Source: an uncultured Gammaproteobacteria bacterium (GTDB taxonomy: Bacteria; Patescibacteriota; Patescibacteriia; 2-12-FULL-60-25). From it: DNA of 34,649 nucleotides. The stretch is taken from assembly GCA_964415965.1 (NCBI GenBank), contig CAYQCK010000003.1:131426-166074 (forward strand), in the 5' to 3' direction. The number at the start of each line of letters is the position of its first letter. Within the stretch, counting starts at the first letter, position 1. Positions 16,727-32,690 of the stretch are shown here, piece after piece. A program made the position numbers and the translations under genes. The notes beneath the pieces are model-generated. The model did not search any database. It was not told where the DNA came from and saw only the letters and a list, made by a program, of their open reading frames with translations.

Positions 16727-16870
16727 CCCCACTTCGCAAGTGACCCCGGGGGTCTGGGGGTCCGCGCCAAGCGTGGTGGCAGGATAACTAACGTCGGCGA
16801 CACCGAGAGCGGCATCGCGGACCCCCAGGACTTTTGCTACTTTTGGTCACAAAAGTAGATAGGAGGGCTT
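16727..16870 (+). repeat. copy A of the conserved structured element (core only; lacks the 5' GGATTCCAGC...GCTGGAATGAC module)
   Basis: CACTTCGCAAGTGAC...GGGGGTCCGCG...GACACCGAGAGCGGCATCGCGGACCCCC...CTACTTTTGGTCACAAAAGTAGATAGGAGGGCTTT. Its 3' end overlaps the stop codon of the convergent HD gene. Confidence 0.85.
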
Positions 16871-17785
16871 TCACTCTCTGATCATCGCCTTGGTCAGCTC
16901 TTCTTCCGAAGATTCAAGCACCGCGATGACGCGTCGATAGTCTTCTTTGGACTTGTCAGGCAAATCTTTCTGTCCGTCCACGATTTTCCGCAGTTGCGCG
17001 ATGGCGCCGGCGTGATCCAGCCCGCCGCGGCCACGGAACGCCTGGTACTTGTCGATGACGGCCAAAACCCCGTACCTCTCCATGAGTTCCAGGACCTTTG
17101 AACCGGGATGGATATCATCCAAGGGCACACGGGCCGGGTTCCGTCCCTCCAGGATGTGGTGCGTCGCGGCGATGACGACGACTTCGTCGTCTATCGCCCC
17201 GCCGCGGTTGCGCTGCAGCACTTCATACGTCCAGTCGGCATGGTCGCGCCAGAACTCCAACATCGGTTTGGTCTCGACATCCACGCCCAGCTCCTGGGCC
17301 AGCACCGACCTGATGCCGACGGGATCCCGCGTTTCCGTCTCACGCATGAACTCGGCGACCGTCTTCGGGACCGGCTTGCCGCCGACCGTCCTGAACGGAT
17401 TGAACGGCATCTTGGGCGTGGCGAACAGCGTCTTGATGGCCGCCCGCAAGGCTGGCGACTTGGTTTCCGGACCAGACTTCCCGATGTCGTGCAGCAGGGC
17501 GCAAAGCATCAGCTTTTCACGCGTCATGCCCCGGATGTCGAGCTTGGGCCAGATTGCCCCGACCATCCGCGCCATGCAGATCGCGTCCTCCAGGTGTTCC
17601 CCCGTCTCGATTAGGCGTTCCCGCAACTCCGGACGTTCCTCCAGCCTGAAGTCCAACCCCAGCTTGGCGACCTGCTCCAATACGCGTTGCCTGGCGGCTT
17701 CCTCCGGAGGCGTTTCGGACGGCATGGGCATTCTCGGTTCAGGCATACTTGGGCTATAGGATAGCCGTCCCAGGGCATTTGGCAA
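16871..17785 (-). CDS. HD-domain phosphohydrolase
   Basis: LLHDIGK, the HD motif, with further conserved His/Asp (ATHHILEG). Confidence 0.65.
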   Translation of the reverse strand: MPNALGRLSYSPSMPEPRMPMPSETPPEEAARQRVLEQVAKLGLDFRLEERPELRERLIETGEHLEDAICMARMVGAIWPKLDIRGMTREKLMLCALLHDIGKSGPETKSPALRAAIKTLFATPKMPFNPFRTVGGKPVPKTVAEFMRETETRDPVGIRSVLAQELGVDVETKPMLEFWRDHADWTYEVLQRNRGGAIDDEVVVIAATHHILEGRNPARVPLDDIHPGSKVLELMERYGVLAVIDKYQAFRGRGGLDHAGAIAQLRKIVDGQKDLPDKSKEDYRRVIAVLESSEEELTKAMIRE

Positions 17786-17791
17786 ATCCCG

Positions 17792-18163
17792 TTAACCAGT
17801 CAGGGCCCGCAGGGCCTCTTCCGTGCTGCCGACGAAAAACGTTTGGCCGCCCCGGTTGCTTTCGCGGATCAGCGCCTGCAGGCTCTCGCTTTGATAGCCC
17901 GAGAAGTCGCCCACGATAGCCAACTGGACGTGATACGTGACGGACTTCTGCAGGATCTCGCCGGCTAAGCCAGTGCGCAGATCGAAAAAATCCGGATTGA
18001 TGTTATCCGCGTGCAGGATGATCTTCTTGGGCGACTGGACGGCGGGATGCGCCATCAGGTCCAAGGCATCGCCGGCCGTCCGGATGACGATGCCGTCCGC
18101 CAAGACCTCCGCGACCTTCTGCCCATCGTATTCATGCGTTTTGATTTCCATGCCGGGAAGCAT
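17792..18163 (-). CDS. DUF4180-like small protein (123 aa)
   Basis: ORF 6 nt downstream of the HD gene on the same strand. Composition is protein-like; family assignment is from memory of the DUF4180 pattern. Confidence 0.4.
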   Translation of the reverse strand: MLPGMEIKTHEYDGQKVAEVLADGIVIRTAGDALDLMAHPAVQSPKKIILHADNINPDFFDLRTGLAGEILQKSVTYHVQLAIVGDFSGYQSESLQALIRESNRGGQTFFVGSTEEALRALTG

Positions 18164-18197
18164 AGCACAAAACCCGGGTATTGCCCGGGTTTTGTGC

Positions 18198-18287
18198 TGG
18201 CGGAGAGGGAGGGATTCGAACCCTCGGTAACCTTGCGGCTACACCAGATTTCGAGTCTGGCTCATTCGACCACTCTGACACCTCTCC
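18198..18287 (-). tRNA. tRNA-Ser (anticodon CGA), class II, CCA encoded
   Basis: Reverse complement reads GGAGAGGUGUCAGAGUGGUCGAAUGAGCCAGACUCGAAAUCUGGUGUAGCCGCAAGGUUACCGAGGGUUCGAAUCCCUCCCUCUCCGCCA. Acceptor GGAGAGG/CCUCUCC, anticodon loop CUCGAAA. Confidence 0.9.
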
Positions 18288-18486
18288 ATGCTCGGCCTTG
18301 CGACCTTCGTTCCGTTCACGCCTGCTGGCGCTCACCGCACTTCCGGTCGGGGCCTGCGCTCCCCATTCGCCCGCTGGCGAACGAGGGCCCCACCACATCG
18401 GATGCGCGGACAGCGTAACCGATTGAGGCTTGACGGTCAACCCGGGGCATTGTAAGGCGCCGGATTATTCCTTAATCTATGGATAT

Positions 18487-31494: not shown

Positions 31495-31495
31495 T

Positions 31496-32368
31496 TTACA
31501 CTTTCGACAGCTTTTTAACGAGTGCCCGCGCTTCTTGGCGCATATCCGGTCTGTTCAGGGCGATTTCCAGGTTGGCCTTCAACCAGCCGATCTTGGAGCC
31601 GGTGTCGTAATACGTCCCTTCGACAAGCTTGGCGTACACCGGACGCTTCTTCATGAGCCCAAAGATGGCGTCCAGCAGGACCAGCTCCCCGCCATGCCCC
31701 TTCTTGGTCTTTTCGATGGCCTCGAAGATGTCCGGCGTCAGGACATAGGCCCCGAGCGAGGCCAAGCGCGACGGCGCCTTGTCCGGTCCCGGTTTCTCGA
31801 CCACTCCTTTGAGCTGGTACACGCCTTTTTCGACCTCGGCCGCCGGGTCGATGATGCCGTAACGCTTCGTGTCCTCATCCCCCACCTTGGTGGTGAACAG
31901 CACCGGATCCCGGTATTTCTCGAACACCTCGATCATCTGCTTGAGCCGTGGCTTCTTGCTGACCATGAAATCGTCGCCGAACAGCACGGCGAACGGTTCG
32001 TCGCCGATGACTTCCCTGGCGTTCAGCACCGGGGTGGCGTTGCCGTACGGCCCTTTCTGGCGGATATAGATGAAATTCGCCATGTGCCCGATGGCCCGGA
32101 TCTCCTCGAGCTGCTCCTTTTTGCCCGTGGCCTTAAGCCAGGCCTCAAGCGTCTGGTTGTCGTCGAAATGGTCCTCGACCGCCCGTTTGCTGATATTCGT
32201 GACCAAGATGATGTCCGTGATGCCCGAGGCGACCGCCTCCTCGACCACGTATTGGATGACCGGCTTGTCGATGACCGGCAGCATCTCTTTGGGCATGGCT
32301 TTGGTCGCCGGCAAGAACCGCGTCCCGAATCCCGCCACCGGGATGACCGCTTTGCGTACTTTTTGCAT
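31496..32368 (-). CDS. galU: UTP--glucose-1-phosphate uridylyltransferase
   Basis: KAVIPVAGFGTRFLPATKAMPKEMLPVIDKPVIQYVVEEA is the canonical GalU N-terminus; 290 aa. Confidence 0.9.
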   Translation of the reverse strand: MQKVRKAVIPVAGFGTRFLPATKAMPKEMLPVIDKPVIQYVVEEAVASGITDIILVTNISKRAVEDHFDDNQTLEAWLKATGKKEQLEEIRAIGHMANFIYIRQKGPYGNATPVLNAREVIGDEPFAVLFGDDFMVSKKPRLKQMIEVFEKYRDPVLFTTKVGDEDTKRYGIIDPAAEVEKGVYQLKGVVEKPGPDKAPSRLASLGAYVLTPDIFEAIEKTKKGHGGELVLLDAIFGLMKKRPVYAKLVEGTYYDTGSKIGWLKANLEIALNRPDMRQEARALVKKLSKV

Positions 32369-32428
32369 ATACCTGGATTATACCCGTCCCGAAGGCAGAT
32401 AAAAAAGACCGCCGATTTTTGCCGGCGG

Positions 32429-32643
32429 ATGGATTCCGGGGGATTTTGCCCGGCCCCAAACCGGGGCTGGAATGACGGGTTGGGTTATCGGACAAAAAAG
32501 CCCCACTTCGCAAGTGACAAGGGGGGGGTCCGGGGGGCCGCGTGGCGTGGCGCACAGAATCTCTAACGTCAGCGACACCGAGAGCGCATAGCGGACCCCC
32601 GGAGCTTTTGCTACTTTTGGCTACAAAAGTAGATAGAAGGTTT
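32429..32643 (+). repeat. copy G of the conserved structured element (most divergent copy)
   Basis: ATGGATTCCGGGGG...CCGGGGCTGGAATGAC...CACTTCGCAAGTGAC...GACACCGAGAGCGCATAGCGGACCCCC...CTACTTTTGGCTACAAAAGTAGATAGAAGGTTT. Confidence 0.8.
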
Positions 32644-32663
32644 AAAATATTTAGGACGCGGCC

Positions 32664-32690
32664 GTGGATTCCAGCTTCCGCTGGAATGAC
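32664..32690 (+). repeat. isolated 5' module (H) of the element family
   Basis: GTGGATTCCAGC-ttcc-GCTGGAATGAC with no core following. Confidence 0.6.

Follow-up and report, generated by a model that had tools for sequence, protein, structure and literature searches.

A probable mosaic of dRS3-type hairpins and a structured core unit in the genome of an Uhrbacteria-like bacterium

A 34,649-nucleotide stretch from the genome of an uncultured bacterium (assembly GCA_964415965.1, contig CAYQCK010000003.1, positions 131,426 to 166,074 of the forward strand), which we refer to as the window, contains an intergenic repeat family in which a short palindromic hairpin commonly lies just upstream of a structured core unit of ∼140-150 nt. 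The hairpin resembles the dRS3 repeat of Neisseria (ATTCCCN8GGGAAT), copies of which flank the RS units of the neisserial intergenic mosaic elements, or NIMEs (PMC1797815, PMC9778887). We consider it likely, with a probability of about 0.7, that the family combines two independent repeats, a dRS3-type hairpin and a structured core, in a mosaic, and is not one modular RNA. Three sets of observations carry this reading: the two parts are distributed independently, each has a structure and covariation of its own, and they are variously present and absent at syntenic loci. The novelty would lie in a NIME-like array found beyond Neisseria, whose hairpins enclose a new structured unit.

Separate distributions of core and hairpin

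A search of both strands of the window with the 18-mer CCCCACTTCGCAAGTGAC, allowing up to three mismatches, returns seven matches, all on the + strand (16727, 19188, 21154, 21376, 25069, 25315 and 32501), against a chance expectation of 0.03. The same seven places, which we designate A to G, are put into families of 51-237 nt by a repeat finder, and a covariance model (CM) identifies exactly seven full-length cores in the window (154-171 bits) and no degenerate remnants, even with its filters off. The 3′ arm of the hairpin, GCTGGAATGAC, is matched six times in the window with up to one mismatch, where 0.73 matches are expected, and each time it is paired with a 5′ arm (G)GATTCCAGC; counting a decayed copy at 25026-25050, there are seven hairpins of the form GGATTCCAGC…GCTGGAATGAC, and six of the seven cores have one 20-45 nt upstream.

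The initial annotation had described core-only, module-only and degenerate copies within this family, and all of its coordinates and sequences hold. Copy A lacks the hairpin module, only a bidirectional terminator hairpin (16690-16716) preceding the core at 16727; hairpin H is GGATTCCAGC-ttcc-GCTGGAATGAC alone, 17 nt after the model match of core G; and in copy E the module (GGATTCCAGCTTGCACTGTAATGAC) has a 3′ arm bearing two substitutions. The GC-rich insert that had been reported is present as CCCCAGCC-ACCGAG-CCGGGG in B, CCCTGGCC-ACCGAG-CCGGGG in C and CCCCGGCC-ACCAAG-CCGGGG in F, giving the general form CCC(C/T)(A/G)GCC-ACC(G/A)AG-CCGGGG, and module G carries a variant, CCCGG-CCCCAAA-CCGGG.

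The core pattern was also used to scan larger collections, from which loci are numbered with the prefix L. Among the genomes it finds one metagenome-assembled genome of Candidatus Uhrbacteria, the closest named genome with a core, with two real loci (L007 and L009) and one chance match (L008); among the metagenomes it finds three real loci, L013 and L017 on one 1.36-Mb contig and L015 on a third contig, the other 12 matches having arisen by chance, mostly from one recurring unrelated high-GC sequence. A further copy (L025) is present in a relative whose YchF protein is 89% identical. No match to the core pattern was obtained in the viral scans, the closest YchF proteins are annotated as Patescibacteria or Uhrbacteria, and the core is limited to Uhrbacteria-like bacteria of the candidate phyla radiation. 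In these relatives it is a bare single unit, with two copies in each of two genomes: none of the six cores from other genomes (L007, L009, L013, L015, L017 and L025) has the GGATTCCAGC hairpin, and all of them except L015 have no 5′ hairpin at all.

The hairpin, for its part, is abundant where there is no core. Scanning viral contigs with ATTCCAGC-N(4-30)-GCTGGAATGAC returned 40 loci comprising 351 kb, most of which hold the short form (C/A)TGG-ATTCCAGC-YTNC-GCTGGAAT-GAC(G/A), often several times per contig; at least 44 distinct short hairpins are present, in contigs of 41-69% G+C, and the covariance model finds zero cores in the 351 kb. Of the core-only and module-only copies whose recurrence in related genomes the initial annotation had proposed to check, the former are seen six times in other genomes; hairpins with no core occur at least 44 times in phage contigs and, beside ychF, in the relative L035. 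The stem covaries as ATTCC-N…N′-GGAAT between flanks CTGG or ATGG (5′) and GACG or GACA (3′), and at position 6 the pair is A-T in 27 of 44 hairpins, C-G in 12 (the variant ATTCCC-N8-GGGAAT), G-C in 4 and T-A in 1, with variants occurring within the same contigs; the C-G variant is dRS3 as defined in Neisseria. The long form with its nested hairpin recurs in L066, where the inner stem is compensated. One of these loci, L062, comes from the metagenome of the window itself and belongs to a tailed phage, which encodes portal, protease and tape-measure proteins and carries a hairpin between structural genes. This phage (IMGVR_UViG_3300022666_000355; L062, L049, L051 and L064) carries at least seven dRS3-type hairpins, placed between the stop codon of one gene and the ribosome-binding site of the next, some of them with a partly duplicated 3′ arm (GCGCTGGAATGAC twice).

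Presence and absence can be followed at a single syntenic site, the locus beside ychF, whose content differs among nine relatives in four states. The window has module-core-H-H2, H2 being a second type of hairpin; L035, with a YchF 96% identical, has two hairpins aligning with H and H2 and no core; L025 (89%), L009 and L017 have the core only, in the same place as window copy G and likewise tail-to-tail with ychF; and L027, L030, L036 and L037 (79-87%) have neither core nor hairpin. L029 (85%) gave no match, but its contig ends 57 nt after ychF and it was excluded from the count of states. Because an orthologous hairpin is present in L035 with no core at this locus, the simpler reading is that H would be a long-standing resident of the site, not what a deleted unit left behind; alternatively, the core may have been lost in the L035 lineage. 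The initial annotation had noted that its view would fall if the partial copies were truncations visible as flanking homology in a sister genome, and such homology was looked for and not found.

Core G is 79-82% identical to its paralogs in the window versus 68-75% to its positional orthologs, and copies within the genome have therefore been homogenised or replaced. Cores A and C are 97% identical, with homology stopping ∼12-15 nt before the first helix of the core, so that the bare state of copy A may simply be the end point of a duplication.

Two further features of the ychF locus were noted in passing. In L025 (2020-2679) and L035 (1433-2071) the NTP-transferase gene is separated from the core or hairpins by a 212-219-aa gene (MxxxYDWQ…IPxHDEPEA…), and in L009 and L017 a gene resembling it at the N terminus begins on the upstream side of the core; the window has no such gene at 32369-32430, a terminator and module G being found there instead. 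The syntenic intergenic sites of L027 hold different palindromes (GTCATCCTGAGCG…CGCTCAGGATGAC) with heptamer arrays, and the intergenic spaces of the lineage are generally colonised by ATGAC-ending palindromes and short G/T-rich tandem tracts.

The same observations bear on the possibility that hairpin, G/T-rich linker and core make up one modular RNA, with the hairpin as an accessory 5′ domain (a stabiliser or processing signal) and the core-only and hairpin-only copies as variants, which we regard as unlikely. It would account for the position and shared polarity of the hairpins before six of the seven window cores and for the other hairpin upstream of the L015 core; the one-sided change in hairpin C, giving a U·G pair, fits the + strand, and hairpins in phage contigs are co-oriented with their flanking genes by 22 to 11 (on crude calls of open reading frames). 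It is at odds with the five of six cores elsewhere that have no 5′ hairpin and with the abundance of hairpins where no core exists; moreover, the hairpin folds alone, unpaired with the core, in every minimum-energy structure, the linker is entirely different between core subfamilies, and no upstream promoter joining the parts was found. Of the "two separable structural domains" initially proposed, the separability stands, since the parts occur apart elsewhere, but the view of them as domains of one RNA finds no support, as they probably belong to independent repeat families and the hairpin is a widespread dRS3-type repeat.

Fold and strand of the core

An alignment of 12 core sequences, later 13, from about six genomes yields a consensus fold with a 5-bp hairpin P1 (CACUU-cgc-AAGUG), a long interrupted helix P2 (GGGG..CUGGGGGUCCGCG / CGCGGACCCCCAG..CUUUU), an invariant internal region at the centre (AAGCGUGG … GCGACACCGAGAGCG), a hypervariable A-rich loop and a 9-bp 3′ hairpin P5. 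Across the 12 sequences, 98.4% of the cells in the 37 predicted pairs are paired and nine pairs change on both sides, as in GCG/CGC to AUG/CAU in B and F, or UUG/CAA to UCA/UGA in P5 of the relatives. Covariation at the observed level was reached in 0 of 500 shuffles, and sliding the partners by 1-3 columns brings pairing down to 38-50%. Core and hairpin stem thus each covary when analysed separately, as the initial annotation had suggested doing. No Rfam family overlaps the cores at E≤5 (16 kb) or E≤10 (461 nt) apart from noise, two tRNAs alone reaching the gathering score.

Some irregularities were seen within individual copies. In L013 (5836-5860) P1 is replaced by, or has decayed into, the 3′ end of a co-directional MGMT-like gene; P1 may therefore not be required, or may be a hairpin of its own with TGAC at its end. 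The first G-run of core G (32549-32560) has 8 G in the window versus 6 in the strain contigs L002, L004, L005 and L006, and the nested hairpin of module G (32460-32470) has CCGTGG for CCGGGG in the same four contigs; such differences reflect either minor polymorphism between strains or errors in homopolymers.

A conserved fold is pertinent to a second alternative, that the hairpin and core together are a selfish non-autonomous mobile element akin to BOX, ERIC or the miniature inverted-repeat transposable elements (MITEs), whose fold serves transposition or tolerance at gene ends and whose core has no cellular function. The units are multi-copy, clustered and patchy among close relatives at one locus; the tandem dimers C-D and E-F, at unrelated loci, are ∼90% identical to each other; copies are homogenised within the genome; and in 7 of 13 copies the tail overlaps the stop codon of a convergent gene or comes close to it. 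Yet the unit ends (AAAGAG… / …GGCTTTC) are not inverted repeats, alignments A1 and A3 show no duplicated flank, and no transposase is nearby. Invariant unpaired segments and covarying helices persist at YchF identities of 78-89%, resembling purifying selection on a folded product, and ychF-adjacent copies are present in four genomes whose YchF proteins are ∼10-20% apart. On balance we think a selfish element improbable.

The changes on one side of a pair indicate which strand is folded. Leaving out the weak G-run helix, they comprise 23 G·U versus 3 A·C cells on the + strand. P1 is kept by G·U only on this strand (AU to GU in six sequences, CG to UG in five), and two U·G pairs of P5 become C·A on the − strand; the Alifold consensus energy is −39.7 kcal/mol for the + strand versus −32.5 for the − strand, on which P1 is lost. 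The core fold is well supported, and the G·U pattern favours reading it on the + strand. The G·U-specific conservation and the invariant loops also suggest that the core is probably a + strand non-coding RNA, one that in most cases faces a convergent gene tail-to-tail; RNA expression is proposed because of the strand-specific pairing pattern, promoter and terminator not having been found.

A convergent gene is the downstream neighbour of the core in 10 of 11 cases (7 of 8 independent loci), and in 7 of 13 copies the stop codon falls within the unstructured tail or no more than ∼15 nt past P5. The 3′ tail of core A, for example, overlaps the stop codon of a convergent HD-domain gene (16871-17785, − strand; Pfam), and that of a convergent gene at 25470-26960 (− strand) is 8 nt downstream of core F. 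This arrangement is what would be expected if the core acted on the − strand, as a 3′-untranslated or intergenic operon element (an mRNA stabiliser or terminator) of the gene ending beside it, and copies A and G have a − strand terminator behind the element; the fold of the − strand is stable too. The G·U pattern in P1 and P5 and the preponderance of G·U over A·C cells point the other way, however, and in B and D the gene's own terminator sits between gene and core; we think a − strand function quite unlikely.

Other roles were considered for the core and rejected. Coding is excluded by a 1-nt indel within the invariant centre, a cis-regulatory 5′ leader or riboswitch by the convergent orientation of the downstream gene in 10 of 11 cases, and an intrinsic terminator by the lack of a T-run after either P5 or the module. 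Resemblances by eye to hepatitis delta virus (HDV)-like, twister and hammerhead ribozymes and to glycine and ykkC RNAs were dropped, as no model scored and the topologies do not fit.

Likeness to NIMEs and other known systems

In Neisseria, RS units are 50-150 bp long (19-214 bp in strain FAM18), fall into more than 100 families and may be inert spacers, and searches for NIMEs allow up to 200 bp (PMC1797815, PMC9778887). The arrays are intergenic, lie beside surface-protein and pilS genes and vary between strains, and dRS3 is the integration site of filamentous phages through a phage transposase or recombinase (PMC1797815, PMC9778887); a comparative paper of 2007 stated that no NIME arrays were known outside Neisseria (PMC1797815).

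The window family shares with NIMEs a 20-bp palindrome with ATTCC…GGAAT arms and eight central bases, the same outer flanks and a G/T-rich tail. Its arrays too are intergenic and vary among close relatives, and the membrane-protein and pilin genes around them change in content from one related contig to another. From C to D, from E to F and from G to H, each time with a core in between, the hairpin spacing is 187-194 bp, within the NIME limit of 200 bp. The short form in the window matches dRS3 in length and at five of six arm positions, position 6 being a compensated A-T in place of C-G. We therefore define a dRS3-type superfamily as (C/A)TGG-ATTCC-N-GC-N4-GC-N′-GGAAT-GAC(G/A), a 20-bp palindrome; its arms, asymmetric flanks and covarying position 6 are found in the 44 phage-contig hairpins, and the Neisseria flanks are alike. 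In a BLAST search, CTGGATTCCCGCCTTCGCGGGAATGACGG matches each N. gonorrhoeae chromosome at 40 or more places, and there are further matches in replicons of Azospirillum, Photobacterium, sphingomonads (Sphingomonadaceae), Cupriavidus and Aeromonas. One Neisseria copy reads tctGGATTCCCGCCTGCGCGGGAATGACggcggcggattcggcggagttggtgg, with CTGG…GACGG flanks and a G/T-rich tail like the window module and linker, and the literal dRS3 hairpin with these flanks is found, often in many copies, in several non-neisserial Proteobacteria. A literature search with the hairpin sequence or its spurious peptides gave only unrelated primer matches. Differences from NIMEs are that the host is a bacterium of the candidate phyla radiation, that some window hairpins carry a nested GC hairpin, and that the unit between hairpins is a single structured family which is hairpin-free in sister genomes.

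By analogy with the neisserial phages, our best guess is that the hairpin serves at the DNA level, as a site that a recombinase or transposase acting in trans recognises or uses for integration. In this genome, units of hairpin and core have spread by copying to five intergenic sites within 16 kb, two of which hold tandem dimers; copying by recombination or gene conversion between such units is suggested because of the dimers and the within-genome homogenisation. The resulting hairpin-core-hairpin units resemble dRS3-RS-dRS3, and the core-only A and hairpin-only H are what a mosaic of this kind is expected to leave.

Several observations weigh against a mosaic of this kind. Pfam identifies no recombinase gene in the window. 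All seven hairpins in ∼60 kb of this genome are within 45 nt of a core and have one polarity, and since the parts travel together here a functional link would also explain the pattern; in L015 a different hairpin (GGTTTCTCGACTTCGCTCGAAACGAC) lies 16 nt upstream of the core, a hint that a hairpin at the 5′ position may play some part. The literal ATTCCCNNNNNNNNGGGAAT is absent, the window having ATTCCAGC-N4-GCTGGAAT, that is ATTCCA N8 TGGAAT, and the window hairpins are all direct whereas the Neisseria pair examined is inverted. For the core as an RNA, the fold draws on only 13 sequences from about six genomes; the promoter scan gives no sigma-70-like promoter upstream of any core on the + strand, and no T-run stands behind P5 or the module on either strand, the gene terminators being assigned by the scan to other hairpins. 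The missing promoters are the more notable because gene promoters here are very consensus-like: a 30-nt repeat family on the − strand (12312-12341, 22007-22036, 24866-24895 and 34463-34492) consists of near-consensus promoters, TTGACA-N17-TATATT with an upstream TG, two of which scored 11/12.

IS110-family bridge RNAs are structured, 140-180 nt long and have internal loops. The core stands beside a hairpin type that is targeted by an IS110-like enzyme in Neisseria, and it could by this token be a guide- or bridge-like RNA directing a trans-encoded recombinase to dRS3-type hairpins. We consider this very unlikely: there is no adjacent recombinase gene, bare cores are found in housekeeping contexts, and the variable loop of the core has no 10-12-nt match to the hairpin or its flanks in the window beyond chance. 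Were it true, NIME-like arrays would be RNA-programmed recombination modules reshuffling surface-protein and pilin genes. Hardly credible is a micropeptide M[T/A][N/S]HGFQL…LE* encoded by the module and translated from a Shine-Dalgarno-like AGGAGG in the preceding core tail, for although D, E and F have an ATG and an in-frame stop (the decayed E keeping an in-frame TAA) and the inserts differ in length by 24 nt and 3 nt, both multiples of 3, a start codon is missing from C and H, TTG would have to serve as one in B and G, two indel events alone give 1/9 by chance, and the Watson-Crick covariation of the hairpin and its presence between phage genes in both orientations speak for a nucleic-acid element.

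Other families of repeats and RNAs are similar in part. BOX elements are built of A, B and C boxes. Like REP/REPIN, BOX, ERIC, RUP and Correia elements, the window family consists of many short intergenic palindromes, mosaic in build, stable in their predicted folds, at gene ends and patchy between strains (PMC3184786). It differs from REPs in having neither a conserved GTAG head nor a RAYT gene, and from Correia elements and MITEs in having no terminal inverted repeats or target duplications; REPs are moreover species-specific, whereas the window-type hairpin is conserved across contigs of 41-69% G+C. Multi-copy sibling small RNAs include the tandem LhrC, Qrr and RsmX families. The core recalls them as a ∼140-nt structured unit with two to seven paralogs per genome, some in tandem, and with invariant blocks and covarying helices; it differs in having no recognisable promoter or terminator and in being known from sequence alone. 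Diversity-generating retroelements (DGRs), integron attC sites, CRISPR and TIGR arrays, retrons and IS200/605 ends were dropped because the repeat geometry is wrong; none of the corresponding proteins is among the Pfam results, though most element-adjacent proteins have no Pfam match at all.

Features of the window and their surroundings

The hairpins and cores of the window are listed in Table 1. The stretch also forms part of a 63.5-kb metagenome contig (JGI 3300022666), whose genes include the housekeeping genes for PolX, Nramp, RuvB and YchF and a run of genes for T4SS (type IV secretion system) pilins.

Table 1. Hairpin modules, cores and associated tracts in the window.
Feature	Position	Strand	Basis
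Core A, subfamily 1; no hairpin module	16721..16875	+	CM match, 163 bits
Hairpin module B, long form with nested GC hairpin; 5′ arm AACTCCAGC with one mismatch	19105..19154	+	Repeat family D6
G/T-rich tract behind hairpin B (GGTGGGTTAGTTGGGTCGGTTGGGTT)	19155..19187	+	Sequence
Core B, subfamily 2	19182..19335	+	CM match, 171 bits
Hairpin module C, long form; 3′ arm GCTGGGAT gives a U·G pair on the + strand	21085..21133	+	Sequence
Core C, subfamily 1; first unit of tandem dimer C-D	21148..21302	+	CM match, 167 bits
Hairpin module D, short form GGATTCCAGC-tttc-GCTGGAATGAC (ATTCCA N8 TGGAAT)	21318..21342	+	Sequence
Core D, subfamily-2-like; divergent variable loop	21370..21524	+	CM match, 167 bits
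Hairpin module E, short form; decayed 3′ arm (ACTGTAAT)	25026..25050	+	Sequence
Core E, subfamily 1; first unit of tandem dimer E-F	25063..25217	+	CM match, 164 bits
Hairpin module F, long form; nested CCCCGGC-caccaa-GCCGGGG	25233..25281	+	Sequence; long form also in phage contig L066
Core F, subfamily 2	25309..25462	+	CM match, 159 bits
Hairpin module G, long form; divergent 5′ arm (ATTCCGGG)	32431..32476	+	Sequence
Core G, positional ortholog of core-only copies beside ychF in L025, L009 and L017	32495..32649	+	CM match, 154 bits; synteny
Hairpin H, short form; no core behind; orthologous to a diverged hairpin in L035	32666..32690	+	Sequence
Hairpin H2, second hairpin family (GGGTTTCTCC…TCGAAATGAC)	32700..32734	+	Homologs upstream of the L015 core and in L035

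Tandem tracts of G/T-rich, heptad-like units are directly beside ATGAC-ending hairpins in every genome examined. In the window they occupy 19155-19187, 21343-21375, 25282-25314 and 32477-32500; elsewhere they are found at 20184-20411, 11094-11174 and 16376-16457 of L027, 515-545 and 1010-1040 of L062 and 1530-1570 of L079, and G/T-rich tails also follow the hairpins in L042 and L050. The unit sequence varies by genome (GGGTTAG/GGTTGGG in the window, (TAGAGGG)n in L027, (GGTTAAT)n in phage and GGCGGAT/TTGGTGG in Neisseria) and the side on which the tract lies varies by contig. The H2-type hairpin family, GG-TTTCTCGAC…TCGAAA(T/C)GAC, shares its GG…GAC ends with the module and is present at 32700-32734 of the window, ∼1885-1910 of L015 and ∼1225-1275 (− strand) of L035. 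The L035 copy carries its own nested GC hairpin, CCCCCGC-cttca-GCGGGG, so that nested GC hairpins recur across hairpin families.

The six T4SS-pilin genes of the window (27120-30043) form a variable surface-gene region bracketed by repeat units. Their number and length vary across L001, L002, L003, L025, L027 and L030, the run differing between sister genomes and even where the NTP-transferase protein is identical (L001 versus L002 and L003). A perfect heptanucleotide repeat (AGCTACC, ×3.7) at 14552-14579 and a degenerate copy at 15047-15072 are within the open reading frame of an O-antigen ligase (Wzy_C; 13953-15200); as in phase-variable genes the unit is not a multiple of 3, and it resembles the intergenic CTACCAG arrays of L027.

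NIMEs may not be a speciality of Neisseria. Their type of hairpin is shared by a bacterium of the candidate phyla radiation, at least one tailed phage of that sample, dozens of other viral contigs, and Azospirillum, Photobacterium and sphingomonads; should it serve as a site for a recombinase or for phage integration, that site would be shared very widely. The unit between the hairpins is here not an inert spacer: covarying and unmatched in Rfam, it is a candidate new non-coding RNA in an Uhrbacteria-like group with almost no characterised RNAs. Because the arrays are in a variable region of pilin and membrane-protein genes, the idea of recombination hotspots that was put forward for Neisseria becomes testable in a second, very distant lineage.

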